64,000 nt of DNA from Patescibacteria group bacterium (GTDB taxonomy: Bacteria; Patescibacteriota; Patescibacteriia; UM-FILTER-42-10): NCBI GenBank assembly GCA_041664365.1, contig JBAYKW010000007.1:434-64433 (forward strand). Reading direction: 5' to 3'. The first letter of the stretch is position 1; every line of letters starts with the position of its first letter. The notes beneath the pieces are model-generated. The model saw only the letters and a list, made by a program, of their open reading frames with translations, was not told the origin of the DNA and did not search any database. This document shows, piece after piece, positions 1 to 55,569 of this stretch. The translations under genes and the position numbers were made by a program.

Positions 1-1124
1 TCCTTGCCGTAATTTAAATCTTTCATTAATTTTGTCGGTGCATTGCGCAGGACCAATGGCACACCCAGACTGCTGGTTTCTTGTGCGTCTCTCGCCGCTT
101 TCTCGTAGGCAGTATAGAGAGTATTAGATTTTTTTGCCTGGGCCAGATAAACCACCACCTGCGCCAGAGCAAGCTTGCCTTCGGGCATACCAATAAAGTG
201 CACGGCGTCTTTCGCGGCATTGGCATAAACCAAAGCTTTGTTATCCGCCAAGCCGATATCTTCCGAAGCAAAGCGTACCAGCCTCCTGGCAACATATAAT
301 GGATCCTCGCCGGCTTCCAGCATTCTGGCCAGCCAATAAAGGGCCGCGTCTGCATCCGAGTCTCTCAAACATTTATGCAAAGCGGAAATAATATTGTAAT
401 GCTCTTCACCATTTTTATCGTAGTATAAAATGGTATTCTGGATTGCTTCTTTTATATCTTTTTCATTCAATTCATAGTTCTTCTTTCCATTACTGGCGAT
501 CTCAATCGTAGTTAAAAGACTGCGCGCATCACCACCGGAAAATTTAATCAGAACATTCTTCCCTTTACGGTTTATTTTTAATTTTTGCTCGCCCAGTCCG
601 CGCGTTTTATCTTTCAGCGCCAGGTTAATAATTTTTTCCTGATCACTTCCGGATAATGGCTTAAAAGTCAGCACTCTGGATCTGGATAACAGCGCTGAGT
701 TAATAGTAAAAGACGGATTCTCTGTTGTAGCGCCGATCAGCGTCAAAATTCCCTTCTCTACATAAGGTAATAATACGTCCTGCTGAGCTTTATTAAATCT
801 GTGTATTTCATCCAGAAATAGAATTGTTTTCTGTTTCAAGAATTCCGCATCTTGTTTTGCATTTTCAGCGATCTTTTTTATTTCAGCCACTCCAATCAAG
901 ACGGCACTACTGGCGACAAACCGGCACTTAAATTCATTACTGAGTATCCTGGCTAGAGTTGTTTTACCGATCCCCGGCGGCCCCCAGAAGATCAAAGATG
1001 CAAGCGTCTGATTGGCAATCATCTGTTCCAATATCTTATCTTTGGCCAGAATATGTTCCTGCCCAAAAAATTCCGATAATTTTTGTGGCCTCAATCTCTC
1101 CGCTAATGGACTTAATTCTTTCAT
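1..1124 (-). CDS. rarA: Replication-associated recombination protein A (AAA+ ATPase RarA/MgsA); C-terminus runs off the window
   Basis: Own reverse-complement translation from the ATG at 1124-1122: MKELSPLAERLRPQKLSEFFGQEHILAKDK...WGPPGIGKTTLARIL...ATTENPSF...; Walker A present; the start overlaps the UDG stop as ATGA. Not in the ORF track because it has no stop inside the window. Confidence 0.85.
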   Translation of the reverse strand, partial: MKELSPLAERLRPQKLSEFFGQEHILAKDKILEQMIANQTLASLIFWGPPGIGKTTLARILSNEFKCRFVASSAVLIGVAEIKKIAENAKQDAEFLKQKTILFLDEIHRFNKAQQDVLLPYVEKGILTLIGATTENPSFTINSALLSRSRVLTFKPLSGSDQEKIINLALKDKTRGLGEQKLKINRKGKNVLIKFSGGDARSLLTTIEIASNGKKNYELNEKDIKEAIQNTILYYDKNGEEHYNIISALHKCLRDSDADAALYWLARMLEAGEDPLYVARRLVRFASEDIGLADNKALVYANAAKDAVHFIGMPEGKLALAQVVVYLAQAKKSNTLYTAYEKAARDAQETSSLGVPLVLRNAPTKLMKDLNYGK

Positions 1125-8207: not shown

Positions 8208-9504
8208 CCTTCAAGATTTCACCGATAGTATAAAGTGAGCCGGTAACAATTACTGTTCCATTATTCCCCGCCAATCTCTTCGCCATCACGATACCATCAT
8301 CCAATGAAGCGGTAATTATCCCTTTTGGATAATATTTTTTTAATTTTGATGCACGATAAAAATCCCTAAGATCATCAATCTTCGTTACATCCGGAAAAAT
8401 CAGTTTATCAGAAAATTTTGCCAGCGTACGCAATATAGCCGGTACCTGTTTTTTCGTGTTCTTTATACTGACTAGAAAAACAGTATTATGCGGTTTAACA
8501 CCCACGTCATGCAGTGCCTTGACTAATGCCCTGATGCTGAATAGATTATGCGCACCGTCCAGGATCACCATGGGATTTTTCTGCCAGATCTGGAATCTTG
8601 CCTCGTGCGCGGTGTTTCCGGCAGCTTTAATAATAGCCTGTGGCGGTATCACAAAACCCTGATTACTAAGTTGCCTGGCGGAAGCAAAAGCACAGGCAAA
8701 GTTTTCCGCCTGATGCCTGCCGATCAAGGACAGTCTCAGATTTCGATATATATCACCCTGATAACTGATATTAATATAAGTACCGGTCAAATCGACTTTT
8801 TTGATTGAATATTTTAGATCCTTGTTAATATTAATCAATGAGGCTTTTTTAGCTTTCACTTTATTTTTTATTACTTTCAGCGCGTTACCCTTAGCTGCTG
8901 TTGAAACTGCGTCATTGTTTTGGATTATGCCGGCCTTTTCTCCCGCTATTTTGGTAATTGTATTACCCAGGGATTTTGTGTGATCAAAGCTAATATTGGT
9001 AATGATTTTATTTTTCAAACCAACCGCCGTTGTTGCATCTAGCCGACCGCCCATGCCCACTTCGATAACAACTACATCTGTTTTTTCTTCGGCGAAATAC
9101 TGGACCGCCAGAGCGGTAGTAAACTCAAAAAATGTAACGTGATCTCCGCGTTTGCCGATTTCTTTCAGTAAGGGGATCATCCGGTCGCCGATTTTTTTCA
9201 CTCTCCGAAGAGTAATCGGCCTACCGTTGATCATAATCCTTTCACTGGGCGATACTAAATACGGAGAATAAAATGATCCGGTCTTATACCCAGCTTCCCT
9301 CAGAATCTTTTCTAGAAATGCCACGGCAGAACCCTTTCCTTTTGTGCCAGCTACCTGCACACCGATCAGTTTTTTTTCGGGACTGCCCATTTTCTGAAGC
9401 AGTGATTTGACCCGGTGCAGTTGCAAAAAATCCTTACTGACAAAGCGCGGGTCGTAAGGTTTCAGATATTTTTGGTACTGATTGAATATTTCTTTTGCTC
9501 TCAC
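8197..9504 (-). CDS. folC: Folylpolyglutamate synthase / dihydrofolate synthase
   Basis: Mur-ligase P-loop VAGTKGKGS; 435 aa. Confidence 0.8.
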   Translation of the reverse strand: MRAKEIFNQYQKYLKPYDPRFVSKDFLQLHRVKSLLQKMGSPEKKLIGVQVAGTKGKGSAVAFLEKILREAGYKTGSFYSPYLVSPSERIMINGRPITLRRVKKIGDRMIPLLKEIGKRGDHVTFFEFTTALAVQYFAEEKTDVVVIEVGMGGRLDATTAVGLKNKIITNISFDHTKSLGNTITKIAGEKAGIIQNNDAVSTAAKGNALKVIKNKVKAKKASLININKDLKYSIKKVDLTGTYINISYQGDIYRNLRLSLIGRHQAENFACAFASARQLSNQGFVIPPQAIIKAAGNTAHEARFQIWQKNPMVILDGAHNLFSIRALVKALHDVGVKPHNTVFLVSIKNTKKQVPAILRTLAKFSDKLIFPDVTKIDDLRDFYRASKLKKYYPKGIITASLDDGIVMAKRLAGNNGTVIVTGSLYTIGEILKEKK

Positions 9505-10334
9505 TATTTTTTACGCAACTGTTTTAATAATTTAATATCATTTTCTCTGCCTTCGGCAGGAGTTTCCAGAATAAAATCTACATTTCTTAATTTCGGATGG
9601 TTGATTAACGCCTCAAATCCATCTTTGCCAATCTCTCCTTGGCCGATATGTTCATGCCGGTCAACCTTGGCGTTTAGTTCTACTTTAGAATCATTGGCGT
9701 GGATTAATTGCAACAAATCAATCCCGACAACCTCATCAAACTTCTTGAGTGTTTCATCAACATCTTTTTTAGTCCGCAAATCATAACCGGAAGCAAACGC
9801 GTGTGCCGTATCAAAACAAACTGCCACTTTTTTATGATTTACTTTTTTTATAATCCTGCCAATCTCCTCGAAACTGTCACCGATAACACTCCCGGAGCCA
9901 GCAGCAATCTCCAATAAAAAAGTCGCTTTACCAGTATATCCTTTCAGTAATTCTTTTATTCCGTCTATTACCATTTGCAGTGCTTTTGCTCGCGTAAAAT
10001 CCTTTGATGAGCCTAAGTGGGTCATTACTGCTACAACACCTAATTGCGAGGCGCGATCCAATTCCTCACGAATAATACTGATAGAACCGTTCCGAACCCG
10101 ATCCTGTTTTGAAGCTAAATTAATATAGTAAGGTGTGTGAATATACGCCTTACCTAGTCCGCTAGCTTTAATATTTTTCTGAAATTTTTTTACAACTTCA
10201 TCGTTGATTTCAGGTGCTTTGCCTCCGCGCGGTGAACGCGAAAACATCTGGAAACATTCACAGTTTTCAGTAAAGGCATTCAGCGGAGCATTTTCCATTC
10301 CGCCGGCTATGGATACATGGGCGCCAATATTCAT
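9504..10334 (-). CDS. nfo: Endonuclease IV (deoxyribonuclease IV)
   Basis: MNIGAHVSIAGG...HANDSK...HEHIGQGEIG; Nfo metal-binding motifs. Confidence 0.85.
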   Translation of the reverse strand: MNIGAHVSIAGGMENAPLNAFTENCECFQMFSRSPRGGKAPEINDEVVKKFQKNIKASGLGKAYIHTPYYINLASKQDRVRNGSISIIREELDRASQLGVVAVMTHLGSSKDFTRAKALQMVIDGIKELLKGYTGKATFLLEIAAGSGSVIGDSFEEIGRIIKKVNHKKVAVCFDTAHAFASGYDLRTKKDVDETLKKFDEVVGIDLLQLIHANDSKVELNAKVDRHEHIGQGEIGKDGFEALINHPKLRNVDFILETPAEGRENDIKLLKQLRKK

Positions 10335-10362
10335 AGCCTAATTATAGCAGATGCCGACAAAA

Positions 10363-10391
10363 TTGACATTGAACTATTTCATTGTTATTAT
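10363..10391 (+). promoter_or_regulatory. Near-consensus sigma70 promoter (TTGACA, 17 bp spacer, TATTAT)
   Basis: aaTTGACAttgaactatttcattgtTATTATgg, about 65 nt upstream of the GTG at 10461. Confidence 0.5.
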
Positions 10392-10460
10392 GGCGACTCA
10401 GGTTAGTGCAAATTAGCATGAACCTAAACCCGCACATTTTAATGGTGGAAGGAGCCAGTC

Positions 10461-10868
10461 GTGGCTGACGATGGAAAGAAGCGACACGCTTTTGAATACC
10501 TTGTGCACTGCCTCATGGGAGACGTAGCACATGCTAGGGTATTGCGTACCCTAATCCAAACAGGGTTCGTTACCCACGAGGAATTGGGCATCAAGCCCGA
10601 AGACGTGGACACATTCCAAGCACTGTCCCGTATCGCGGACCCCAAAGAACGTGCCATTACGGCATTCCGCGGTTGCCGTGAAGGCAACGTTCTTGCCAAC
10701 TTCGGCGTGATCCAATTTCTTTTCCGTTCCCGCCAGATCAGGCCCACCGATCTGCGCGAGGGTGACGACAGCATCCTAAAGGTAGGCTCCGACCTGAGTC
10801 ATTTTCACAAAGCGCACACCGCACATCTCGCCAGGATTCTCCCATCGGAAAAATCCGCGCAAGACTAA
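10461..10868 (+). CDS. Hypothetical protein (135 aa), high-GC, GTG start
   Basis: Shine-Dalgarno GGAAGGAG 7 nt before the GTG; clean ORF ending at a terminator. Confidence 0.5.
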   Translation: MADDGKKRHAFEYLVHCLMGDVAHARVLRTLIQTGFVTHEELGIKPEDVDTFQALSRIADPKERAITAFRGCREGNVLANFGVIQFLFRSRQIRPTDLREGDDSILKVGSDLSHFHKAHTAHLARILPSEKSAQD

Positions 10869-10885
10869 CCCCTTGCGTTTTTTTA
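10857..10885 (+). terminator. Rho-independent terminator CGCAAG...CTTGCG + T7 (copy 1 of a duplicated terminator)
   Basis: Hairpin then TTTTTTT; near-identical copy at 11924-11951. Confidence 0.6.
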
Positions 10886-10937
10886 TTCTGCATATACAAA
10901 ATAAATCCGCCTCTGGCGGGTACTATGTTTATATCCA

Positions 10938-10966
10938 TTGACACTATGATTCAATCATGATAAATT
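10938..10966 (+). promoter_or_regulatory. Sigma70-like promoter (TTGACA, 17 bp spacer, TAAATT) with a perfect palindrome ATGATTcAATCAT in the spacer
   Basis: ccaTTGACActatgattcaatcatgaTAAATTcc. Confidence 0.45.
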
Positions 10967-10991
10967 CCACAACCTCCTCCTAGACAGTCTT

Positions 10992-11018
10992 CAGTTGTGC
11001 TCACGGTGAGGACAACTG
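10992..11018 (+). promoter_or_regulatory. 13-bp-arm near-perfect inverted repeat in the 5'UTR (CAGTTGTGCTCAC g GTGAGGACAACTG); operator or RNA hairpin
   Basis: One mismatch across 13-bp arms; lies between the promoter and the Shine-Dalgarno of the 11048 gene. Confidence 0.4.
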
Positions 11019-11047
11019 AATCACCTGTTTGTTCAGGGAGGAAACTA

Positions 11048-11341
11048 ATGACGTTTATTGGCAACACTCAACTCCCGAAATTCGGAGACATAATCCAGAT
11101 CACCATTCCCGGCAACCCCGGTTTCGTGCTGAAGGTCACCGTGATCTCCGAATGGGCCATCGACCAGGAGGAAGAAGAACACATCAGCTTCGTGTTTTTC
11201 CTGCCCCGTGACTCGTTCCCTCTGGTGTTCGCCCGTCGGGTCGTAACCCTGGACAAGACCAATGAGAAGTGGACCGTCCGCATCAAGAACGGCGAGTCCA
11301 CCATTATCCAGGAAGTCACCGTGAACATCCTCCGCGACTGA
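11048..11341 (+). CDS. Hypothetical protein (97 aa), high-GC
   Basis: Shine-Dalgarno AGGGAGG before the ATG; ORF ends at a terminator. Confidence 0.5.
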   Translation: MTFIGNTQLPKFGDIIQITIPGNPGFVLKVTVISEWAIDQEEEEHISFVFFLPRDSFPLVFARRVVTLDKTNEKWTVRIKNGESTIIQEVTVNILRD

Positions 11342-11367
11342 CTTCATCCCGCTCTTTCCCGCCACTC

Positions 11368-11391
11368 CACCATTTGGAATGGCTTTTTTTA
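11368..11391 (+). terminator. Terminator CCATTtggAATGG + T7 (copy 1 of the second duplicated terminator type)
   Basis: Hairpin plus T-run; similar copy at 11574-11602. Confidence 0.55.
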
Positions 11392-11422
11392 TTCTCACCA
11401 AAACGTAACCAATTATAGAAAG

Positions 11423-11450
11423 TTGACTTTCCATTCATAAAATATATAAT
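11423..11450 (+). promoter_or_regulatory. Consensus-like sigma70 promoter TTGACT, 16 bp spacer, TATAAT
   Basis: agTTGACTttccattcataaaataTATAATtt. Confidence 0.5.
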
Positions 11451-11456
11451 TTCTTT

Positions 11457-11602
11457 AGTCATACGTGGAGCAGGGGGTCTTCGTTTTGGACAGCATCCTC
11501 CACGGAGGGTGTCTGGGGTTAAAATCCCAGCCGGAGATCCCCTCTCCACCAAATATCAACGCTCTTTCCTAATCCATTCCTCCCTTTGGGATGGTTTTTT
11601 TT
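11457..11602 (+). ncRNA. Candidate structured RNA (small RNA or cis-regulatory leader) ending in an intrinsic terminator
   Basis: Transcript from the consensus promoter; nested helices (CTGGGGuuaaaauCCCAG, GGAGGG...CCCTCTCC); terminator hairpin plus T8 at 11574-11602; no convincing ORF. Confidence 0.35.
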
Positions 11603-11634
11603 ATTTTGACAGATTTTTTGCACCGTGTTATGTT

Positions 11635-11925
11635 ATGCCAACTGCCTTTCAGCAGAGAACCGACACCCGCGACTCAAGGAGAATAATATTGCTCTCGAAA
11701 CGCAGAATCAGAAGGCTCGTACGGCGCACCATCGCGTCATTTGTCGGCATTATTTTCGGTCTGGTTCCTGCCTGGTTCCTTCTTTATGATCTACACACAA
11801 CTCAAGGTAACAAACTCTATTTTGCCAAATGGTTATGGCCAATACTTACTGTGCAGTTCTTTCTGATCATTTTCACCTTCGCCTGGATCTGGGCGATCTG
11901 GACCAATCGGATCCCAGAACTCTAA
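11635..11925 (+). CDS. Small two-TM membrane protein (96 aa), high-GC; no obvious Shine-Dalgarno
   Basis: Arg-rich N-terminus then two strongly hydrophobic helices; the ORF ends exactly at a terminator. Confidence 0.35.
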   Translation: MPTAFQQRTDTRDSRRIILLSKRRIRRLVRRTIASFVGIIFGLVPAWFLLYDLHTTQGNKLYFAKWLWPILTVQFFLIIFTFAWIWAIWTNRIPEL

Positions 11926-11951
11926 CGCAAGCTGACCCTTGCGTTTTTTTA
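11924..11951 (+). terminator. Terminator CGCAAG...CTTGCG + T7 (copy 2)
   Basis: Near-identical to 10857-10885. Confidence 0.6.
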
Positions 11952-12014
11952 TACAAAGAAAAAAGGCGACCCTGCAGAGGTATCGCCTAAAACTCTCATA
12001 AACAGCAACGATGC

Positions 12015-12521
12015 TTAACGCGGACGATGGTGAGGATTGTACTTGCGGAAAGGCTCCCGCAGTTCTTGTGCCCGATAGAGCACGAGGCTCAGTTCGAGCA
12101 TCTCGTCCAGGGAATCGACCAGAAACACATTGGCAAGCCGGAGCTTGCGAAGGTGTTCGCGCACGAGTGCGCGTGCGCGCAGACTCTCCTTGCGCGCAAC
12201 GGGATCGTTGAGCTCATCGTTCAGCTTGTCATCGATCATGATGACGAACTCCCGATGATCATCGAGCCGGATGGCGTTCAGGATGCTGAACCCGGTTTCA
12301 GCCAGCGACCCGGTCCCGTAGGACTCGTCGGTCACGGGGAAGAGGATGACTGCATCCTCAGCGAGATGCTGTGCTTCCTCCACGGCACATTCGGGGGTCC
12401 AGTCCTCGACTTGGGGATTGAAGAAAGCGACACCAAGATCCTGGTACAGCTTGATGAACTTCGCGCGCCAGGTACTTGATCCACAGGTCCCGAACAATCC
12501 GATTGTTAGCATTACGCTCAC
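12015..12521 (-). CDS. Nucleoside 2-deoxyribosyltransferase-like (Nuc_deoxyrib_tr superfamily) protein, high-GC
   Basis: IGLFGTCG...DESYGTGSLAETGFSILNAIRLDD resembles the D.GT..E.G.A core of PF05014, assigned from memory; 168 aa. Confidence 0.45.
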   Translation of the reverse strand: MSVMLTIGLFGTCGSSTWRAKFIKLYQDLGVAFFNPQVEDWTPECAVEEAQHLAEDAVILFPVTDESYGTGSLAETGFSILNAIRLDDHREFVIMIDDKLNDELNDPVARKESLRARALVREHLRKLRLANVFLVDSLDEMLELSLVLYRAQELREPFRKYNPHHRPR

Positions 12522-12597
12522 CCTTTCATCCTTTTGTCCACTGACACGAGTGAACAGTCATCACTAGTCGCCACGAATGACATTGTGACGACACGAT

Positions 12598-12626
12598 AGG
12601 ATATCATAAAATATGTTTCATGTCAA
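12598..12626 (-). promoter_or_regulatory. Sigma70-like promoter (minus strand: TTGACA, 17 bp spacer, TATCCT) for the 12015-12521 gene
   Basis: Reverse complement reads TTGACAtgaaacatattttatgaTATCCT. Confidence 0.4.
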
Positions 12627-12654
12627 GACTTAATCATATTGTATAAATAAAAAA

Positions 12655-12690
12655 GAGGCGGCAACGAAGATGAAGCCGCCCTGTGCCTGA
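12655..12690 (-). terminator. Intrinsic terminator (GGCGGCttcatcttcgttGCCGCC + T-run on the minus strand)
   Basis: Hairpin followed by TCTTTTTT when read on the minus strand. Confidence 0.55.
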
Positions 12691-12997
12691 CTGGGATCAT
12701 TTGTCCCTCTTCCTGGGCTAGCCAGGCGATAGCCGAAAATGCGTGATGCATTTCCCTACCATTCGCCTTTTCAGGCGGGGGAAAAGGAGCTCGAGCTCTC
12801 TCTGTGGAGAAAGAAATGATAGCGACCCTTCTCTCGCAAGGGGAGTGTTTGCCTCGGCGCAGTGTGGTCCGGCTCCGTATCCTTGCCTTTTCCCCGAAAC
12901 AGATCGGGGACGGAGAGACGCTCCTCTCGACGCTGACTTTCAGGCGATCTGGGCCGTCCAGTGAATCATACGTCACCTCCCTTCCGGTTTTGGACGC
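12691..12997 (-). ncRNA. Candidate independent ~340-nt GC-rich transcript (small RNA, or mRNA of a doubtful small ORF) between its own promoter and terminator
   Basis: Minus-strand promoter at 13004-13031 and terminator at 12655-12690; strong Shine-Dalgarno AAGGGAGG plus ATG at 12976, but that ORF reads through the terminator. Confidence 0.3.
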
Positions 12998-13003
12998 ATA
13001 TTT

Positions 13004-13031
13004 ATATTAACATGAAAACATGATTAATCAA
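13004..13031 (-). promoter_or_regulatory. Sigma70-like promoter (minus strand: TTGATT, 16 bp spacer, TAATAT)
   Basis: Reverse complement reads TTGATTaatcatgttttcatgtTAATAT. Confidence 0.4.
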
Positions 13032-13076
13032 TGTCGGCCTGATACAGACTGCATATTATATTCTGCTCGCATATAA

Positions 13077-13115
13077 AAAAAGAGTCGCATGCAGTATGAG
13101 CAATTGACTCTAGCG
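13077..13115 (-). terminator. Terminator for the OMP gene (GAGTC...GACTC hairpin + T7 on the minus strand)
   Basis: A7 on the plus strand immediately 5' of the hairpin. Confidence 0.45.
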
Positions 13116-13133
13116 AAAGAACATGCCCGATCT

Positions 13134-14036
13134 TCAGTTGAGATCGAACTGCACAGACCAGATAATTGTCGGGTGGCTGTGCTGCTGAAGCACCAGATTG
13201 GGTTGGAACTTCAGTGCCCCCTGTCGTAGCTCGGCACCGACAACAACCTCGACATCATCCGTCACCAGTTGTTCTTGTGCCATCGTCAGTAGTGCAAATT
13301 GAGTCCGCTGGGTACAGCGCGCGGTCAGTGCGAATGATTCGTTCAAATCCGCCACAGCAGTAACCAGCCAGCCCCGGCTGTGTTGGAAATCTCTCCGCCA
13401 CAGCATGGCGGATTCCACACTCAGTCCAGATGCCGGACAAACCGACAACTTGCCGTAATACAGTGTACGCTCACCCGGCGGCTGACGACCGGACTGAAAT
13501 GCTCCGGAGAGACGCAGTGGTCCAATCCAGGACGACGTAACAGATGCTGTGAAGTCGCGTGACTGGTTGTCGTCCGGGACATTATGTCCCGATCCGTTGA
13601 ATACGCACGACTGGAATGATCCGAGCCGATTCGCGAACAGGATCGATACGCCGATGTCATACTGGTCAGTAATGTAATAGTCCGTCAACGCATAGGCTAC
13701 GAACCGCTTTTTCCCCGGCGAGGATTCAACCTGCATCATCGGGTTGGTGAACTGACCCAGACGCAATTTGCTCCTGCCTAAGATAGGCAGAGTCATCCGG
13801 TATTCGAGATAGACCTGAAGTGGGATTGTGTTCTTCCCCACCTGCGCCTCACCGAACAGTGTGAGACTGTCCATACTCGCGGTAAGGAATGGCCGAAGCC
13901 GGCGTAGTTCGAAGCCCTGCCCCGCATCCTGAATCTGACCGTAACCGCCGGCATGCAGAACAGGAAAATATTCCCCCGTCTGAGCCATGGCGCTCGCTGT
14001 ACAGAACAGCATTACTACCAGAACCACGTTTCTCAT
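13134..14036 (-). CDS. Secreted putative outer-membrane beta-barrel (porin-like) protein, high-GC
   Basis: Signal peptide MRNVVLVVMLFCTASAMA/QT; amphipathic beta-strand periodicity; aromatic-rich C-terminus ...WSVQFDLN. Confidence 0.5.
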   Translation of the reverse strand: MRNVVLVVMLFCTASAMAQTGEYFPVLHAGGYGQIQDAGQGFELRRLRPFLTASMDSLTLFGEAQVGKNTIPLQVYLEYRMTLPILGRSKLRLGQFTNPMMQVESSPGKKRFVAYALTDYYITDQYDIGVSILFANRLGSFQSCVFNGSGHNVPDDNQSRDFTASVTSSWIGPLRLSGAFQSGRQPPGERTLYYGKLSVCPASGLSVESAMLWRRDFQHSRGWLVTAVADLNESFALTARCTQRTQFALLTMAQEQLVTDDVEVVVGAELRQGALKFQPNLVLQQHSHPTIIWSVQFDLN

Positions 14037-14087
14037 GCGCGTCCCTCTCTTTCTGGATGTACACACCCTCCTTAAGCAAAGTTGTGT

Positions 14088-14116
14088 ATCTTAAACAAAC
14101 TTGCAGAGGATGTCAA
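14088..14116 (-). promoter_or_regulatory. Sigma70-like promoter (minus strand: TTGACA, 17 bp spacer, TAAGAT) for the OMP gene
   Basis: Reverse complement reads TTGACAtcctctgcaagtttgttTAAGAT. Confidence 0.4.
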
Positions 14117-14135: not shown

Positions 14136-14170
14136 AACCACCCTAACAAACGTAACCAGGGTGGTTTTTT
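14136..14170. terminator. Bidirectional terminator AACCACCCT...AGGGTGGTT flanked by A5 and T6 (tig terminator)
   Basis: Lies between the tig stop at 14173 and the island. Confidence 0.6.
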
Positions 14171-35901: not shown

Positions 35902-37266
35902 ATGACGAAGGAGCAGCTTTGGCAAGCAGTTTTGGGGGAGTTAGAATTATCGCTGAGCAAAGCAAATTTTACCACTTGGTTTAATAATACCTTTGTTTCC
36001 GAATTCGATGATGAAAAGATTATAATAGCGGTTCCAAACACTTTCACCAAAACTTGGTTTGAAAATAAATATCATCAAACCATCACCCAAGCTCTCCAAA
36101 ATGTCACTGAAAACAAAATTAGAGAAGTAACTTATAAAGTGGAGTTTTCAAAGAACCCAAACAATTCCACTTTAAAACCTCAGATATCTGAAGCAGAAAA
36201 AAAGGTGGATTCTTTAAAGAAGAAAAGTGCGCAGGAAAATGATAACGGACTTAATCCTTCTTATACATTTGAAAATTTTGTTGTCGGCAAAGGAAATGAC
36301 CTAGCTAAGGCAGCCTGTATAGCAACCGCGGAAAAACCAGGGATTATTTATAATCCTCTTTTTATTTATGGCGGAGTGGGGTTAGGAAAAACCCATTTAC
36401 TACAGGCGGTCGGTCATAGAACAATGGAAATATATAAAAACAAGAAGGTTGTTTATGTTACTTGTGAAAGTTTTACTAATGATTTCATTCAGTCGGTAAG
36501 TAATGGAAAAACAGAAAAATTTAAAGACTATTATCGCTCTGTAGATGTTTTGTTAATTGATGATATACAATTTTTGGCAACAAAAGAGCGCACACAGGAA
36601 GAATTTTTCCACACCTTTAATACACTCCACCAAGCTCGGAAACAAATTGTTATCAGTTCCGACCGACCGCCAAAGGCAATCCCGGCATTAGAAAAAAGGC
36701 TTATTTCTCGTTTTGAATGGGGGATGATCGCGGATATTTCCAGTCCTGATTTAGAAACAAGGGCGGCTATTTTAGAAACAAAATGCAGAGAAAAGGGTTA
36801 TCAACTAAGCAACGAAATTCTCTCTTCTATTGCCGCTTCAGTACAAAACAATGTTAGAGAGCTTGAGGGTGCTTTAAACCGCATTATTGCCCATCACCAG
36901 CTCAATAACAGTACGCCAACGCTTGAATCAACGAAAGAAGTGTTATCTGCCCTTGCCAGCACACCAAGAAAAGGCGCATTAACTCCAAAACAGGTTATCG
37001 CAACTGTGGCCGAGTTCTATGAAATTAATATAAAAGATTTGATTGGTGAAAGCAGAAAAAAGGAATTGGTCGTGCCGAGACAGATTTCCATGTTTTTAAT
37101 GAGGGAGGAAATAAAAACTTCTTACCCGAGTATTGGACAGGAGGTTGGTGGTAGAGATCATACAACCGCAATGCATGCATATATGAAAATAACAAAAGAA
37201 GTGGAAGAAAATGAAAAAATAAAGCAGGAAATTGATTTAATCCTTCAGCGTCTTTATAATAATTAA
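35902..37266 (+). CDS. dnaA: Chromosomal replication initiator DnaA
   Basis: GGVGLGKTHLLQAVG Walker A; C-terminal DnaA-box binding domain. Confidence 0.9.
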   Translation: MTKEQLWQAVLGELELSLSKANFTTWFNNTFVSEFDDEKIIIAVPNTFTKTWFENKYHQTITQALQNVTENKIREVTYKVEFSKNPNNSTLKPQISEAEKKVDSLKKKSAQENDNGLNPSYTFENFVVGKGNDLAKAACIATAEKPGIIYNPLFIYGGVGLGKTHLLQAVGHRTMEIYKNKKVVYVTCESFTNDFIQSVSNGKTEKFKDYYRSVDVLLIDDIQFLATKERTQEEFFHTFNTLHQARKQIVISSDRPPKAIPALEKRLISRFEWGMIADISSPDLETRAAILETKCREKGYQLSNEILSSIAASVQNNVRELEGALNRIIAHHQLNNSTPTLESTKEVLSALASTPRKGALTPKQVIATVAEFYEINIKDLIGESRKKELVVPRQISMFLMREEIKTSYPSIGQEVGGRDHTTAMHAYMKITKEVEENEKIKQEIDLILQRLYNN

Positions 37267-37484
37267 CAATTAACTTTTTTGTGTAAAAATCTGTTGATAA
37301 AGGGTGTAGATAATTTGTAGAAAAACAGAAAGAATAATTCTCTTGAACTTTATACACAAAACAACCAACCACTTATCCAAAATAAAATGTTAATAAACAT
37401 TCCAAAAAATAAAAGGGAAAACAAAGAATTAAAATCTTTATCCACTTATTAACATTATTACTACTATAATTAATATAATATACT
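37267..37484. promoter_or_regulatory. Probable oriC: AT-rich dnaA-dnaN spacer with at least four DnaA-box-like 9-mers
   Basis: TTATCAACA (revcomp at 37292-37300), TTATCTACA (revcomp at 37305-37313), TTATCCAAA (37374-37382), TTATCCACT (37438-37446); strand orientation flips here. Confidence 0.55.
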
Positions 37485-38591
37485 ATGAAACTATATTGTA
37501 CCCAGGAAAATTTAAATAGGGGATTAAATATTGTAAGCCATCTGGCAGGTAAGAATACTACCCTTCCAATCCTTGATAATATTTTAGTAAGTATTGAAAA
37601 TGGTATAATTCAACTTTCTACCACAAATTTAGAAATGGGGATCAGTTGTAAAATTAGAGGTAAGGTGGAAAGTGAAGGAAAAACAACTATTCCAGCAAAA
37701 TTATTTTCTGACTATATCAGTCTTCTACCAAATGAGAAAATTTATATTGAAGAAACTGAAAAAAAGATATATATCAGCTGTACCGATCAGGAAACAACAA
37801 TTCAGGGGATGTCGGCTGAGGACTACCCTTTAATTCCTTCATTAGAAAAAAAGAATAAGATTGTGATTAAAACCGAGGATTTAAAAAATGTTGTCAAAGA
37901 AACACTATTTGCCGCTGCCTATGATGAAACAAGGCCGGAAATCAGCGGAATGTTAATAAAAATTGAAGGGAATAAGGCAAGATTTGTTGCAACTGACAGC
38001 TACCGACTCGCCGAAAAAACAATAATTATTGATTCAAAAGGAGTGGGTGATGTAGAAAGCATTTTACCATCCAGAACTATGCAGGAGCTTGTTAGGATTG
38101 TTGGCATGTCAGAGTCGGAAGAAATAGAAATGTATATAGCAGAAAATCAGGTTCTCTTTTGTGTTGATGATATTGAAATAATTTCCCGGGCAATCGAGGG
38201 GAATTATCCGGACTATCAGCAAATAATACCAAAAGAGAAAAAAACCGGCGTCCTGGCAAATAAAGAGGATTTGTTAAAAGTAATAAAAACAACAAGTCTT
38301 TTTTCAAAGAGTGGGATTAATGATGTAAACATCAAAGTGGTAAAAGAAAACAATGAATTAATTGTTTCCGCAATTAATTCACAACTGGGAGAAAACATAT
38401 CTAGGCTGAAAGTTGAGATCGAGGGGGAGGATAATCAAATTGTTTTTAACCACCGTTATCTTTTGGACGGACTGCAGTGTATTGATTCAGAAAAAGTGTT
38501 TTTAGAAATAATAAATAACACAAACCCTGGTGTGGTTCGACCGGAAAATGATGAAAATTACGTTTATATAATCATGCCGATTAAACAGTAG
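37485..38591 (+). CDS. dnaN: DNA polymerase III beta sliding clamp
   Basis: 368 aa, three-domain clamp. Confidence 0.85.
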   Translation: MKLYCTQENLNRGLNIVSHLAGKNTTLPILDNILVSIENGIIQLSTTNLEMGISCKIRGKVESEGKTTIPAKLFSDYISLLPNEKIYIEETEKKIYISCTDQETTIQGMSAEDYPLIPSLEKKNKIVIKTEDLKNVVKETLFAAAYDETRPEISGMLIKIEGNKARFVATDSYRLAEKTIIIDSKGVGDVESILPSRTMQELVRIVGMSESEEIEMYIAENQVLFCVDDIEIISRAIEGNYPDYQQIIPKEKKTGVLANKEDLLKVIKTTSLFSKSGINDVNIKVVKENNELIVSAINSQLGENISRLKVEIEGEDNQIVFNHRYLLDGLQCIDSEKVFLEIINNTNPGVVRPENDENYVYIIMPIKQ

Positions 38592-48193: not shown

Positions 48194-48829
48194 ATGAAAC
48201 GTAAATCAAAAAGTAATCTCCTTGAAGAGCTAACATCTTTACCATATTTTACTAAAGATCTTATTTGTCAATTAGGTAAAGCCGAAAATAGCTATAGTCT
48301 AAAAGATAGCACTATTGATACATATATAAGCCGTTTTCTTAAGGAAAAAGAAATAATCTCTTTAAAAAGAGGTTTATATGTGTCGATGGACTTTTATAAT
48401 AGTAACAAGGATAATCTGTCATATTCATTTTTTCTTGCGAATATTATTAAGAAGCCTTCATATATAAGTTCTTGGGCCGCTCTTCAGTACTACAATCTTT
48501 CTACTGAAATAATACATACAATCACATCAATTACACCAAGAGTCACAAGAAATTATGAAACAAAAATTGGTACTTTTTCATATCAGTCTGTAAAGAAGAA
48601 CTTATTTTCTGACTTTTCTTTTGTAAAAGATAAGTTTGAATTTTTTATTGCCTCCCCCTCTAAGGCTTTATTTGATTTACTTTATTTCAAAACAAGACAA
48701 TTTAGAGGTATAAAGATTAACGATGTAGATTCAATAATTGAAGACTTACGCATTGATATTAGTGAATTGGGCGAAGAAGAGCGGAAGAGATTTTATTTTA
48801 TGATAAATAAAAATATACGTCATGGATAA
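48194..48829 (+). CDS. abiEi: AbiEi-family type IV toxin-antitoxin antitoxin (wHTH transcriptional regulator)
   Basis: 211 aa; N-terminal wHTH with ...ISLKRGLYV (the RG(L/V)Y AbiEi signature); 8-bp overlap with the toxin gene. Confidence 0.6.
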   Translation: MKRKSKSNLLEELTSLPYFTKDLICQLGKAENSYSLKDSTIDTYISRFLKEKEIISLKRGLYVSMDFYNSNKDNLSYSFFLANIIKKPSYISSWAALQYYNLSTEIIHTITSITPRVTRNYETKIGTFSYQSVKKNLFSDFSFVKDKFEFFIASPSKALFDLLYFKTRQFRGIKINDVDSIIEDLRIDISELGEEERKRFYFMINKNIRHG

Positions 48830-50114
48830 TCAAATCATTGTAGCACTTAAAAAAAAGATAGAAGAAATTTCTGCATATGAAGGGGTTGATGCGGAAACTC
48901 AACGCAACTCAATAAAGGAATACCTACAGTTTTATGTGCTTAATTTTATTTATCACCATCCAGAATACAGCAACTGGATTATGTATGGAGGTTCAGCGCT
49001 TCGCATTTGTCATGATCTTAATAGGATGTCGGTTGATTTAGATTTTGAGGTTAATCACGTAATCACAAACGATTTTCTGGAAAAACTGAAGGTAGAAATA
49101 GCCGTCCATTTTGAAAATATATATAATATCGATTCTAGTTCTCTTAGTATTGGGATTACAAATAATAGGGGTGTCACATTAAAATTTCATATAGGAGAAG
49201 AGCTCGGTTTGGGGTTTGCTTCTAAGCAGGTGCATATAAAAATCGATCTAAATCATTTTGTCGCACCAAAAACGGTAGTTGTAGAGCACATACCAAAGAA
49301 CGAGAATCAACTTTCGTTTGTAATTAAAACGTATAATTTATCCGCGCTCATGGCAAGTAAAATTGCCGCAATTTTTCTACGAGGGCCACGTGGAGTTGGT
49401 AGGGTGGTACATGAAGAAAAAGGACGTGATATATATGATCTGCTTTGGTATATGAATAAAAAAATTGTACCTGATTTGGATTACTTATCCGCCAAAGATA
49501 TTAAGTTTGCAGATCCAAAAGAACTATTCAATAATATTACCATTAAGATATTAAACAATCCAAAAACAGATGTAAATCTTAAACATGATTTAACCCCTCT
49601 TTTTATGGATCAAGCCTTTATAAATAATTGGCTCATTAATTGGAGGGATAGTTATCTACAATATCTCAAAGACTATAGAATTCATACCGTATCCACTCTC
49701 GAAAAAATAAGTATAACCCAAGAATTTCATACTGACATATTTTATTTTATATATTGGTATAATATTGAAGATGGAAATCAAGCGAGAATCATATTTCGTA
49801 TTAGTGATTATTGGATTGAATATGGGGAAGGGGATTTAGCAGTCAAGGTTAGTGAAAAAGTAAAGAGGCTGTGTGAATTTAATAGTAATGGATGGACAAG
49901 CCATCCTCCGTCGCAGGATAAATTAATGGAATATGCCGAGCTATTTTACCAAAAGATTGAGCGGTATCTTAAAAAAACAAACCACATAATGCTGGGTGAA
50001 ATTATTACTACTAAACTAATACGGATGACTACTGATCATTTAAACCAGCAAGAACAAATATTATTAAATAAGTCCGCTCTACTTTCTTGTGAATTAGATG
50101 ATTTATTAAAATAA
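48822..50114 (+). CDS. abiEii: AbiEii/AbiGii-family nucleotidyltransferase toxin (DUF1814) with about 130-aa C-terminal extension
   Basis: MYGGSALRICHDLNRMSVDLDFE (GG.AL...DLD NTase motif); 430 aa. Confidence 0.6.
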   Translation: MDNQIIVALKKKIEEISAYEGVDAETQRNSIKEYLQFYVLNFIYHHPEYSNWIMYGGSALRICHDLNRMSVDLDFEVNHVITNDFLEKLKVEIAVHFENIYNIDSSSLSIGITNNRGVTLKFHIGEELGLGFASKQVHIKIDLNHFVAPKTVVVEHIPKNENQLSFVIKTYNLSALMASKIAAIFLRGPRGVGRVVHEEKGRDIYDLLWYMNKKIVPDLDYLSAKDIKFADPKELFNNITIKILNNPKTDVNLKHDLTPLFMDQAFINNWLINWRDSYLQYLKDYRIHTVSTLEKISITQEFHTDIFYFIYWYNIEDGNQARIIFRISDYWIEYGEGDLAVKVSEKVKRLCEFNSNGWTSHPPSQDKLMEYAELFYQKIERYLKKTNHIMLGEIITTKLIRMTTDHLNQQEQILLNKSALLSCELDDLLK

Positions 50115-51205: not shown

Positions 51206-52018
51206 CTAGTTGTCTGGATAGATAACTATCATGACTCTCCGACCATTTGTTGGGTCGCCGTTGTTCCAATCATGAGTGGCATTGATCAGAACATCCGGAT
51301 CATAGACATAGTCGTGTCCTTTGCGGGTGCCGGGGTCATTGGTAATAATCTGTGTTTCCGTCCAGCCTTTAACCACCAGCGCGTGATAGAGCGGACCCGG
51401 TTGTTTAAAATTCGGATTGCCAAGCTCGCGTCCTGCGGAGAGCAGAATCACTGGTTTTCCTTGAGCAACTTGTTGTTTAATGTCATTAATTGTGATGTCA
51501 TAAACTACATCCACTCTTTTGTAATGGTAAAAATCTTTGATCAACTGAGCGGTTTCTTCCGCGGAAGTACTTTTATAATCGCCATATTGGACATTTTGAA
51601 AATCTACCAGCGCGAGCAGCTCATTGTCGGCGGTTTGAGTGTCTTCAAACGGTTTGTTTTCGTAAAAACGATGTACCATCAAAAGCGCCGCTTCTTCGCA
51701 AGTGTCTTCGTGAATTTCATCCCAATTTGCAAGCGGGGCTTGTGAAGTAAAGGGTACATCGAGATTGAGTGTTTTTGGTATGTTAATTGCGACATTTGCA
51801 TTTACTTGATTCAAGTTGACATTAGCAGAATTGGTATTTCGGTTTTCGTTTGACGCCTTCGTGTTTGTATTGGCTGAAATATCATTATATGAAACAGCAT
51901 CAGGTACCGGTTCTTCAAACTGCTCTTTAACCCAATCAGAAACCGGCACGCGGTACCAGTAAAGTACGGCGAGTAATGCGGTGATGATAATTATGCTGAT
52001 GAATAATTTTTTCTTCAT
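51206..52018 (-). CDS. Membrane-anchored papain-fold C39-like peptidase domain protein
   Basis: DTCEEAALLMV (catalytic Cys context) and GHDYVYD; paralogous to the C-terminus of 53629-55569. Confidence 0.5.
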   Translation of the reverse strand: MKKKLFISIIIITALLAVLYWYRVPVSDWVKEQFEEPVPDAVSYNDISANTNTKASNENRNTNSANVNLNQVNANVAINIPKTLNLDVPFTSQAPLANWDEIHEDTCEEAALLMVHRFYENKPFEDTQTADNELLALVDFQNVQYGDYKSTSAEETAQLIKDFYHYKRVDVVYDITINDIKQQVAQGKPVILLSAGRELGNPNFKQPGPLYHALVVKGWTETQIITNDPGTRKGHDYVYDPDVLINATHDWNNGDPTNGRRVMIVIYPDN

Positions 52019-53628: not shown

Positions 53629-55569
53629 TTAGCGGACGACGACTCCGGCATTGCCGAAAATGCCCCAGTCCTGTTCGAAGCGGGCCTTGGTCCAATAAAT
53701 TTGCCCGGCATAAGTGTCATTTAAAATAATCTGAGTTGGGTTATCTTTATTACCGACGTAGCCGATGACGGTGCGGGCATGTTCGCCCTTCCAGGCATAG
53801 ATATATTTTCCGGCGGGTGTGTGCCAGGAATCTTCATAGCCGGAGCCATAAACTCCCCACACAACAACCGCGTTGCCTTTGCTGATTTCTTCCGTGATTT
53901 GTGTCACAGTCCAACCGGTAAAGGCCTCAGAGGGACGCCAGTGGTTGGCTGCGCGGGCAATTGGGTCCCAATAGACACCGTAGCCGGAGGTATTCTGTCT
54001 ACCGCGGATATCGCCGACAAAAGCTTCATATGGATCACCCCAAGTTGCGCCGGAGTGTGGTGTAGTATCGTAACCGACATAGGCCATAATGTCGCTTTCT
54101 GAGACAGAAACTCCTTTACCAGCCAGCGCCATTTTCAAGGCGGCGGCCTCGCAGGATAAAGGTAAATCCTGCAGGTCGCTTGCGATAGTAAGCTTCACTA
54201 CTTCCGGTTCTGTTGTGAAAGAATATGATAAATCTTTTGTTAGATCGAGCCCGTGCACACTTACTATGCCACTTTTTAAATTCAGTTTATAGGTTGAATT
54301 ATTCTGGAAAGCGTCTGATGGCTGGATAATCATCGTGTTCCCTTCCCAGCGAAAGGTAAGTGGTATACTTGGTTCAAGTGTAATATGTGCTTCGGCTGAC
54401 ACATGATCTACTTCCTGATTAAATGCGATTCGAATTCCGCTTTTACTCCCAACTCCGGTGGCATTGTTCCCCGGAGATGTACGGAGTACTTTAATTTCTC
54501 CAATGGTTGTAAATTTATATGAAAGAGGTTCTTCGAGATAGCCACCACCTTGAGTTTTTGTATCAGCTTTGATCATAACTTCATAATCGGTTCCGTAAGC
54601 TAATTTTGCAGCAGGGGTGACAGTTACAACTGTGGCATCTTCAGAAAGTGTGATGCTAGGGTTGATGTCCGGCGTGACTGATAAATTCGCGCGCAAGGAT
54701 TCCAAGTCCATTGCTTTGGTAAATGTAACAGAAATCGGTGTGTCAATAAAAACCGCTTTCCCAGTTGGAGTCGATTCAGCTATTAGTGGTGGCGCGATTG
54801 TCTTAAAAGCGCCGTCATACATTTTTTCTGGCTCACTGCGATGCACGATTTCGCGGGTTGAAATATCACGAGATACGCTAACCCTGAAAACAGTTAAATT
54901 ATATCTTGTTGATTGCTCAAGCGGTTCAGTCGGTGTGAGTGTATATAGATTTTTTGTTTCATTAATTGTTTCTAGAAAAGCAATTTCCGGATCGAACACA
55001 AACTCGAATTCAGCGATATCAGGGTTCGGTTCGGTCAGTTCAATGGTAATTGGGGTAGCTGGTGAAATGTTTTGTGAACGTATTTCAGGGAATACCGCAA
55101 AAATATCCGGCAGGGGTCTTGTTGTAAATTGAAAAGTGGATGAACTTGTTTTACCTACCGGAAGCGGGCTTTGAATATTTTTTAAATCAACTTGATAAGT
55201 AGTCCCCGCAAGTAGTGTGTGGTTTGGTACAAAACGGATGCGCCGGAAAAAACGTCGGTTGAATAAAGGCGCTTCAAAATGCCACTCACCTTCAATATCG
55301 GGTGAAAGGGAAACTGAAAGCGTCTGCCGATCTACCGGACGGCTGAAATCAATAACAATTGATGTAGAAAGGTCTATGTTTTCAGAAGCTTGCGGACTAA
55401 CCTGCGTAATTGTCGGGGTGAATAAAAAGTTTCTTGCCAGGAAAATAAAAAGTACCAGCACGACTGCAAGTACTCCAAAAATAATAATTGCTCGTGAACG
55501 TAAAAAATTTAGATATTTTTTATTGGCTATATATTTATTCTTTTTATCCTCGGTAAAATTCTGCAGCAT
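53629..55569 (-). CDS. Membrane-anchored protein with tandem Ig-like (Big/SbsA-type) repeats and a C-terminal C39-like peptidase domain
   Basis: N-terminal TM; repeated beta-rich modules; C-terminal LSCEAAALKMAL...GEHARTVIGY. Confidence 0.55.
   Translation of the reverse strand: MLQNFTEDKKNKYIANKKYLNFLRSRAIIIFGVLAVVLVLFIFLARNFLFTPTITQVSPQASENIDLSTSIVIDFSRPVDRQTLSVSLSPDIEGEWHFEAPLFNRRFFRRIRFVPNHTLLAGTTYQVDLKNIQSPLPVGKTSSSTFQFTTRPLPDIFAVFPEIRSQNISPATPITIELTEPNPDIAEFEFVFDPEIAFLETINETKNLYTLTPTEPLEQSTRYNLTVFRVSVSRDISTREIVHRSEPEKMYDGAFKTIAPPLIAESTPTGKAVFIDTPISVTFTKAMDLESLRANLSVTPDINPSITLSEDATVVTVTPAAKLAYGTDYEVMIKADTKTQGGGYLEEPLSYKFTTIGEIKVLRTSPGNNATGVGSKSGIRIAFNQEVDHVSAEAHITLEPSIPLTFRWEGNTMIIQPSDAFQNNSTYKLNLKSGIVSVHGLDLTKDLSYSFTTEPEVVKLTIASDLQDLPLSCEAAALKMALAGKGVSVSESDIMAYVGYDTTPHSGATWGDPYEAFVGDIRGRQNTSGYGVYWDPIARAANHWRPSEAFTGWTVTQITEEISKGNAVVVWGVYGSGYEDSWHTPAGKYIYAWKGEHARTVIGYVGNKDNPTQIILNDTYAGQIYWTKARFEQDWGIFGNAGVVVR

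Follow-up and report, generated by a model that had tools for sequence, protein, structure and literature searches.

Beta-barrel outer-membrane proteins, those of the BamA family above all, serve as genomic markers of a second membrane. In the bacterial supergroup that includes the Candidate Phyla Radiation (CPR, Patescibacteria), the described porins are the OmpM/SlpA proteins and the beta-barrels of the Thermotoga toga. The OmpM-type system is stated to be lost in CPR bacteria, which are treated as part of a single-membraned clade that lost outer membrane and porins, and the envelopes of most of them have never been observed. The sequence considered here is a stretch of 64,000 nucleotides from a Patescibacteria group bacterium (assembly GCA_041664365.1, contig JBAYKW010000007.1; hereafter the window). 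It carries a gene for a 300-residue protein that is very probably a genuine channel protein with the porin fold, from a family resident in CPR. An earlier note, made from the sequence alone, had described an outer-membrane-type beta-barrel in a lineage expected to lack an outer membrane; the barrel is borne out by modelling, by structural matches and by profile alignment, and the expectation about the lineage accords with the literature. What does such a protein do in such a cell, and in which membrane?

The fold was approached through the family. HMMER, run exhaustively over 1.84 billion representative proteins, yielded 34 relatives, and 25 sequences were aligned for modelling. With this alignment AlphaFold2 produced a single-chain model with 16 strands of 9–15 residues (pLDDT 86.3, pTM 0.78), in which an N-terminal helix, residues 2–16, lies at the signal peptide; a model built from four close sequences was discarded (pLDDT 33). 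All Foldseek matches in the PDB at probability 1.00 are porins, with TM scores of 0.6–0.7 to 16-stranded porins. Neither a lack of barrel topology nor a secreted beta-sandwich, the two outcomes that the earlier note had named as contrary to its reading, emerged from the structure prediction. The 28-residue loop after strand 5 comes after the family motif GQFxNP, which is conserved in the alignments; in the model it resembles the porin constriction loop L3 and may fold into the pore. The most conserved motif of the family includes the invariant or nearly invariant columns N147, G148, D155, N157 and D161, and aligns to FNGSGxNxxDxNxxKD of the profile of Porin_O_P-type proteins. At the positions that putatively face the lumen there are about 12 basic residues, the conserved R92, R190 and R240 among them, and about 9 acidic ones.

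The modelled strands can also be examined for their two faces. Hydrophobic alternation throughout the protein had been claimed beforehand, and from the single sequence the claim is modest (beta hydrophobic moment z = 1.7 vs shuffles); it stands at the level of the family, where strand faces are 67% hydrophobic on one side and 32% on the other. Such a contrast, as modelled, marks a barrel that is embedded in lipid and has a polar lumen. Might the protein instead be an exported barrel that spans no membrane, for example a binding or carrier protein, soluble or associated with the wall, that has kept the porin fold? Strands 1, 2, 5 and 10 show little hydrophobic contrast between faces, the terminal beta-signal described below is degenerate, and a single-membraned cell has no known membrane for it, all of which would suit such a protein. 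However, lipid-facing and lumen-facing residues alternate clearly in 12 of the 16 strands across 25 diverged sequences, and all strong structural matches are integral membrane porins. In trimeric porins, moreover, subunit contacts lie at strands matching the weakly contrasting ones, and the low contrast of strands 1, 2 and 5 in this single-chain model is compatible with a subunit interface. A barrel outside any membrane is judged quite improbable.

The modelling shows the predicted gene product as a Sec-exported, monomeric, 16-stranded beta-barrel of the porin fold. Export is indicated by the N-terminus, MRNVVLVVMLFCTASAMA followed by QT, which on direct reading has a basic n-region, a hydrophobic core, A-x-A at positions −3/−1 and no lipobox; the cleavable signal peptide ending in AMA/QT that had been proposed is thus present, and similar N-terminal signal peptides are found throughout the family alignment. 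The open reading frame (ORF) as called mechanically, 13134..14066 on the minus strand, is GTG-initiated. The ATG at 14036 is the likelier start because the Shine-Dalgarno-like GAGAGGGA lies 5 bases upstream of it and because it agrees with the N-termini of homologues. The NCBI call of an identical protein (P0001, 292 aa) begins eight codons later, at Met9, which cuts the signal peptide and drops the charged n-region.

To which porins is the protein related? The more remote relatives from the HMMER search belong to the phosphate-selective porin O/P (Porin_O_P) proteins. Searches with the single protein were empty in Pfam (E <= 0.1), in NCBIfam, in PHROGs and with phmmer against PDB sequences. 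The threshold of the Porin_O_P (PF07396) family hidden Markov model was not reached by the window protein, with no match at E <= 0.1 nor in an alignment-wide scan. A word-indexed search started from the family alignment recovered only 11 proteins, with most of the family not among them, and a family-profile search of PDB sequences found OprP at E 0.26 only, which is not used as evidence. Alignment of profiles gives a clear result: hhalign of the 25-sequence family against 12 Porin_O_P-type proteins has a probability of 100% and E 1.4e-41 over 262 columns at 21% identity. The 12 proteins had themselves been gathered through their resemblance to the query, which brings in some circularity; they are independently Pfam-annotated, and each is significant in a database of 5.8 billion proteins. 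In the other direction, PF07396-annotated proteins (P0037–P0043) match the family profile at E 1e-34 to 5e-6, and PF07396 is matched by 6 of 35 scanned relatives (best E 1.3e-28). The family of about 300 residues forms a separate clade in a rough neighbour-joining tree. These comparisons place the protein in a short, divergent branch of the Porin_O_P superfamily.

The distribution of the family is next to be considered. About 24 clusters (50% identity), of proteins of about 300 aa each, occur among the representative proteins, and this is a lower bound as the search profile was built from close sequences. Six clusters have members in Patescibacteria-labelled metagenome-assembled genomes (MAGs) or contexts. 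The window protein itself has an identical counterpart in an NCBI 'Patescibacteria group bacterium' MAG (P0001), P0004 comes from a Parcubacteria-group MAG, and P0007, P0010 and P0044 are in Patescibacteria MAGs on contigs of 338–651 kb. An unlabelled member of the P0010 cluster (P0045) is on a 960-kb contig, and the CPR contigs of the family range from 76 kb to 960 kb. A Logan contig (L001) repeats the gene order of the window: H+-PPase, CarS-like protein, acyltransferases, AMP ligase, trigger factor, porin, island, AP endonuclease and Mur ligase. Its trigger factor clusters with Patescibacteria MAG proteins, in line with the CPR genome supposed in the earlier note, and the junction of trigger factor and porin genes recurs in ENA and JGI contigs. 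A second arrangement is present at the P0007 and P0010 loci, whose highly divergent porins share 29% and 26% identity with the window protein; here the order is type IV secretion system pilin, tRNA-Lys, porin, DnaB, YbaB, RecR, and further on SecY and ribosomal genes. No L30 gene lies between S5 and L15 in loci L007 and L012, and absence of L30 is a hallmark of CPR. P0009 adjoins ribosomal and tRNA-synthetase genes, and the alanyl-tRNA synthetase there is 74% identical to a Patescibacteria MAG protein.

Several other observations bear on the carriers. The porin-like genes of L007 and L012 are closely preceded by a gene for tRNA-Lys(UUU), at 9774–9846 and 9351–9425 respectively; the gap of about 1 kb that holds it has no other annotation, and the site is a possible hot spot of integration. 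P0030 (L010/L011) is found on a 153-kb contig labelled 'Candidatus Aenigmatarchaeota archaeon', with neighbours that look bacterial (N_methyl pilin-like, FHA, STAS and acyl-CoA dehydrogenase). On account of these neighbours, and because archaeal DPANN labels turn up here and there among alanyl-tRNA synthetases that are clearly of CPR origin, the label is taken as unreliable and does not count in favour of an archaeal carrier; CPR contigs seem fairly often to be mis-binned into DPANN MAGs. No relative was found in 185,579 GTDB species genomes, with search patterns that reach close relatives only and so do not measure the spread of the family, nor in IMG/VR viral contigs with close-alignment patterns of the same reach. 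A tblastn search of phage and plasmid collections gave no phage match and one weak match to a Spirosoma plasmid (E 3e-3).

Could the gene belong to a co-occurring Gram-negative bacterium and have entered the contig by an error of assembly or binning? The compositional jump at the borders of the island and the doubtful label of P0030 would fit such an artefact. The same junctions (with the trigger factor gene on one side, and with a conserved block and the AP endonuclease gene on the other) are nevertheless present in independent Logan, ENA, JGI and NCBI assemblies, and other members lie deep in Patescibacteria contigs of 338–960 kb beside DnaB, SecY and ribosomal genes. An artefact is hardly credible, as the synteny over multiple assemblies effectively refutes it. 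Mis-binning and recent import from a double-membraned (diderm) bacterium are both rejected because CPR labels, contexts and conserved synteny recur in independent assemblies.

A diderm donor was one of two explanations offered in the earlier note (the other, a different localisation, is now the central question), and a recent transfer from such a donor is rejected: the nearest relatives are CPR proteins, the tree agrees, synteny is conserved and the ratio of non-synonymous to synonymous substitution (dN/dS) is that of a selected gene. Similarity to Porin_O_P-type proteins is only about 21% identity, and among those proteins only P0025 is shown in a diderm-type context; it is a true PF07396 protein whose context has a type IX secretion signal, and it is an outgroup member. 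As the sequences stand, any transfer of the porin gene would be ancient, or the gene would be a relic. Between the window and the orthologue in contig L005, dN/dS is 0.18 (dS 0.44), and against L001 it is 0.07 with dS saturated. Substitutions between window and L005 are concentrated in loops (0.24 per site) relative to strands (0.07). The family is shown by these data to be resident in Patescibacteria genomes and kept under purifying selection.

The gene diverges quickly all the same. Window and L001 porins are 64% identical, most flanking housekeeping proteins 82–86% and the Mur ligase 70%. The window and L005 porins are 85% identical even though the trigger factor is equally distant, and for this reason two allele types of the porin-like gene exist. 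In L005/L006, from two independent JGI samples, an in-frame TAG stands at codon 25 (L005 about nt 972–974); it probably represents an inactivation, judged recent because the rest of the L005 gene still has a dN/dS of 0.15. The porin-like gene can evidently be lost. Gene callers start the L005 orthologue at Met56 (P0002, 245 aa), given the TAG just after the signal peptide.

The composition of the locus raises another possibility, that the gene is a functionless passenger brought in from a double-membraned bacterium with a GC-rich foreign island. The gene has a GC content of 0.548 against 0.41 for the window, its GC at third codon positions is 0.615 against 0.448 in the trigger factor gene, and it lies in a 3.7-kb GC-rich island that also holds a conserved non-coding block and lineage-specific ORFs. 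It is GC-richer than its locus in all CPR-type loci examined (window, L001, L007, L011, L012, L013, L015 and L016; excess +0.02 to +0.14), which is not so in the outgroup locus L014, and the nonsense allele would also fit a passenger. Against this, the dN/dS of 0.07–0.18 has been maintained over a divergence at which synonymous sites are saturated, the nearest relatives are from CPR and not from double-membraned bacteria, the position of the gene is conserved across genomes, and it has its own promoter-like site and ribosome-binding site. The tree and the match list do not place the window protein inside a clade from double-membraned bacteria. A passenger is very improbable, and the GC excess could come from amino-acid composition, codon selection or transfer within CPR.

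The rest of the island offers few clues. The corresponding island in L001 is at about 10000–13300, and the GC excess persists despite saturated synonymous sites. Island ORFs other than the porin gene differ between the window and L001, and have no confident match to known families in Pfam or PHROGs; one of them (12015–12521) is weakly like nucleoside 2-deoxyribosyltransferase (E 1.8e-6, below the Pfam cut-off). An origin of the island in a prophage or defence system was considered and set aside, with no PADLOC hit (porin excluded) and one marginal PHROG of unknown function (phrog_25674, E 0.0014). At another family locus the porin-like gene is near an integrase and a relaxase.

The C-terminus bears directly on how the protein would be assembled. 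The aromatic last strand that had been pointed out beforehand is there in IIWSVQFDL, with W293 and F297, but the final residue is Asn and not the typical aromatic, so that the window protein (...VQFDLN) does not have the beta-signal with terminal aromatic of the beta-barrel assembly machinery (BAM) type. A C-terminal aromatic residue is present in 8/24 members of the family of about 300 residues as against 16/16 Porin_O_P-type relatives (15 Phe and 1 Tyr; Fisher p = 1.2e-5). Non-aromatic members have an aliphatic residue at the terminal position, often followed by one to three polar residues. The terminal Phe reportedly matters for BAM-dependent assembly, from work on PhoE. The relaxed terminal residue would fit a protein freed from the BAM constraint. 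Of outer-membrane families, no Omp85/BamA, Lpt, Lol, TolC, OmpA or secretin was found among the approximately 45 ORFs of the window, nor among the called genes of six CPR loci (about 115 kb). The window does encode peptidoglycan functions (PBP1, MurJ and Mur ligase) and YidC.

Could the protein nonetheless be a porin in the CPR cell's own outer layer, whether a remnant outer membrane or a toga-like or S-layer-like array with lipid patches? This is the main rival, and it implies that these Patescibacteria lineages are not strictly single-membraned. The fold, the hydrophobic belt and the signal peptide are precisely what a porin resident in an outer membrane has, the terminal Phe survives in a third of the family, and purifying selection and vertical synteny fit a structural role. 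According to the literature, beta-barrel arrays in Thermotoga support small lipid patches without a classical outer membrane, and the envelope architecture of most CPR is unobserved. On the other side, the family is rare and patchy in CPR, the gene is in variable islands and has a nonsense codon in one lineage, the protein has no SLH or OmpA-like anchoring domain, about 180 kb of CPR sequence showed no gene for outer-membrane biogenesis, and published work assigns CPR to a clade from which the outer membrane was lost. A position in the cell's own outer layer is rated unlikely, although it is to be taken seriously.

The explanation preferred here is that of an accessory exported channel acting in a membrane other than the cell's own cytoplasmic one, probably the host's, and it is put forward tentatively, at rather less than an even chance. 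The barrel would act as a passive, water-filled channel whose lumen is charged and contains an L3-like loop, and its hydrophobic belt would require a lipid layer. Were a pore of 16 strands to open in the cytoplasmic membrane of the producing cell, ion gradients would be dissipated; because of this uncoupling, and because no outer-membrane assembly genes were seen in about 180 kb, a foreign membrane is proposed. After export the pore might insert at a host contact site, independently of BAM and in an accessory capacity, and let small metabolites reach the auxotrophic episymbiont. The accessory character may be read from the rarity of the gene, its place in a GC-rich variable island, its proximity to a tRNA or to an integrase and relaxase, its rapid divergence relative to most flanking housekeeping genes, and the nonsense allele. 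A foreign or host membrane specifically is possible, with slightly less assurance than the explanation as a whole; it is consistent with a gene that is accessory, patchy and fast-diverging, with the degenerate beta-signal and with the assembly genes not seen. The fully specified version, a 'borrowed-membrane' porin that folds without BAM, inserts into the host surface membrane and serves passive metabolite uptake by the symbiont, is doubtful as a complete scheme.

A number of points weigh against this explanation. The structural model is a prediction. We know of no established bacterial precedent for insertion of a porin from outside into a lipopolysaccharide-covered membrane or a wall-covered host. 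No conserved partner gene, such as an adhesin or a secretion system, lies beside the porin-like gene. The terminal Phe is still present in one third of the family. Finally, the check for outer-membrane genes spans about 180 kb and is a weak negative, as BamA and others may lie outside.

Coordinates of the gene, its signals and the domains of its product are listed in the table. The consensus scan scored the promoter-like site at 10/12. The automatic terminator scan passed over the hairpin between the trigger factor gene and the porin-like gene, whose loop is 13 nt; its position suggests that the porin-like gene may be transcribed alone.

Table. Position of the porin-like gene, its flanking signals and the predicted parts of its product in the window
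Feature	Coordinates	Strand	Basis or remarks
GC-rich variable island, 3.7 kb	10400..14100		between AP endonuclease and trigger factor genes; GC 0.46-0.59 vs ~0.40 backbone
Porin-like coding sequence, 300 aa	13134..14036	minus	ORF list, homologues, dN/dS; stop codon 13134-13136
Last strand and C-terminus, TIIWSVQFDLN	13137..13169	minus	read from sequence; aromatic-rich, ends in Asn not Phe
Predicted 16-stranded beta-barrel domain, residues 26-299	13140..13961	minus	AlphaFold2, Foldseek, strand-face pattern
Most conserved family motif, NGxGxNxxD(D/N)NxxxD, residues 147-161	13554..13598	minus	family alignment
Long loop after strand 5, residues 98-125, two short helices	13662..13745	minus	model secondary structure
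Sec (type I) signal peptide, residues 1-18, cleavage AMA/QT	13983..14036	minus	read from sequence
Shine-Dalgarno-like GAGAGGGA	14042..14049	minus	read from sequence, 5 bases before ATG
Sigma-70-like promoter, TTGACA-17-TAAGAT	14088..14116	minus	consensus scan 10/12; consensus match only
Terminator-like hairpin, CCACCCT ... AGGGTGG then TTTTT	14136..14170	minus	read from sequence, 3' of trigger factor gene

Directly downstream of the porin-like gene is a conserved, GC-rich block of about 360 nt (window 12637–12998, minus strand), with counterparts in L001 (11020–11375) and L017 (about 500–905, minus strand). Its nucleotide identity to these two is about 74–80%, compared with 68% for the porin coding sequence. 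A protein gene was rejected, as the lengths of the indels are not divisible by three and the ORF that overlaps the block shows just 53% amino-acid identity. An AT-rich promoter-like stretch lies upstream, and a GC-rich hairpin followed by a T-run (intrinsic terminator) lies at the end. RNAalifold on two variants of the block gave 89 pairs, of which 8 are changed on both sides, 18 on one and 0 broken; folding of the single sequence has z = −1.9. Rfam held nothing at gathering score and otherwise chance-level matches, so the block was not assigned to a known RNA family. On the two sequence variants it is a candidate for a new structured RNA of about 345 nt.

Other parts of the window were noted. 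It spans the chromosomal replication origin, since dnaA and dnaN are found beside rnpA and yidC (35902–38591) and the GC skew turns there, with the cumulative minimum near 36 kb. An AbiEi/AbiEii toxin-antitoxin (abortive infection) gene pair is at 48194–50114. Two Peptidase_C39_2-like proteins (51206–52018 and 53629–55569), one with Big_5 Ig-like repeats, flank the MurJ gene.

Has such a family been described before? No literature description of a CPR porin family of this kind was found, within an incomplete coverage that leaves room for an earlier description elsewhere; the mentions of CPR 'porins' that were found are automated porin-cytochrome calls only. The fold and the superfamily are known, and what is new is the unexpected lineage, the degenerate assembly signal and a family missed by standard annotation. 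Surveys of envelope genes have probably missed the family, because Pfam and NCBIfam do not detect it. Should the protein reside in the envelope of the CPR cell itself, the cell plan of some CPR would have to be reconsidered. Should it act elsewhere, it offers a concrete candidate for the way in which ultra-small, auxotrophic episymbionts draw on their hosts. With about 280 residues in its mature form, the protein is small and lends itself to refolding and to work in bilayers.

How does it compare with the known porins? Among the structural matches the porin of Rhodopseudomonas blastica (1PRN/7PRN; E 4e-8, TM 0.61–0.64) is nearly equal in length at 289 aa, OmpF/OmpC-type porins reach TM 0.70, and OmpU is also among the top Foldseek matches. 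Like the general diffusion porins, the modelled protein has 16 strands, with a long internal loop following the fifth; identity to these porins is, however, about 10–12%, and to general bacterial porins of the OmpF/OmpC type (Porin_1, Porin_4) 9–13%, with no Pfam match, and the resemblance is at the level of fold only. The barrel fold is likewise matched by OmpM1 of Veillonella (PDB 8byt; E 3e-7, TM 0.62), but the window protein has neither the SLH domain nor the coiled-coil stalk of OmpM/SlpA proteins, and its mature chain starts at strand 1. Three proteins of about 600 aa (P0027, P0031 and P0033) have an N-terminal extension of about 380 aa, with hydrophobic, membrane-like stretches in P0027 and P0031, and a C-terminal Porin_O_P-like barrel. 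The barrel part matches the family profile at E about 1e-5, whereas the terminal Phe is kept and the proteins fall outside the clade of about 300 residues. The best structural match in BFVD, A0A8S5S2G8 ('Siphoviridae sp. ctBLh2', 612 aa), has E 1.4e-12 and TMq 0.73.

A conceptual precedent for a porin in a foreign membrane is PorB of Neisseria, which inserts into host-cell membranes. In contrast to the proposed CPR case, PorB first goes through BAM-dependent assembly in an ordinary outer membrane, and it does leave its producer for the membrane of another cell, whereas for the CPR protein transfer is only proposed. The closest relationship is with Porin_O_P. Homology extends along the whole barrel, the motifs GQFxxP, (R)DIG and FNG(S/T)GxNxxDxNxxKD are common to both, and both have a signal peptide; OprP of Pseudomonas aeruginosa (PDB 2o4v; PF07396 OprP/OprO) has 16 strands, the number predicted here. 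The differences are in size, with about 280 aa and much shorter loops in the mature window protein, compared with 330–420 aa; in the terminal Phe, lost in two thirds of the family of about 300 residues; and in the carriers, which for this family are Patescibacteria and not double-membraned bacteria.

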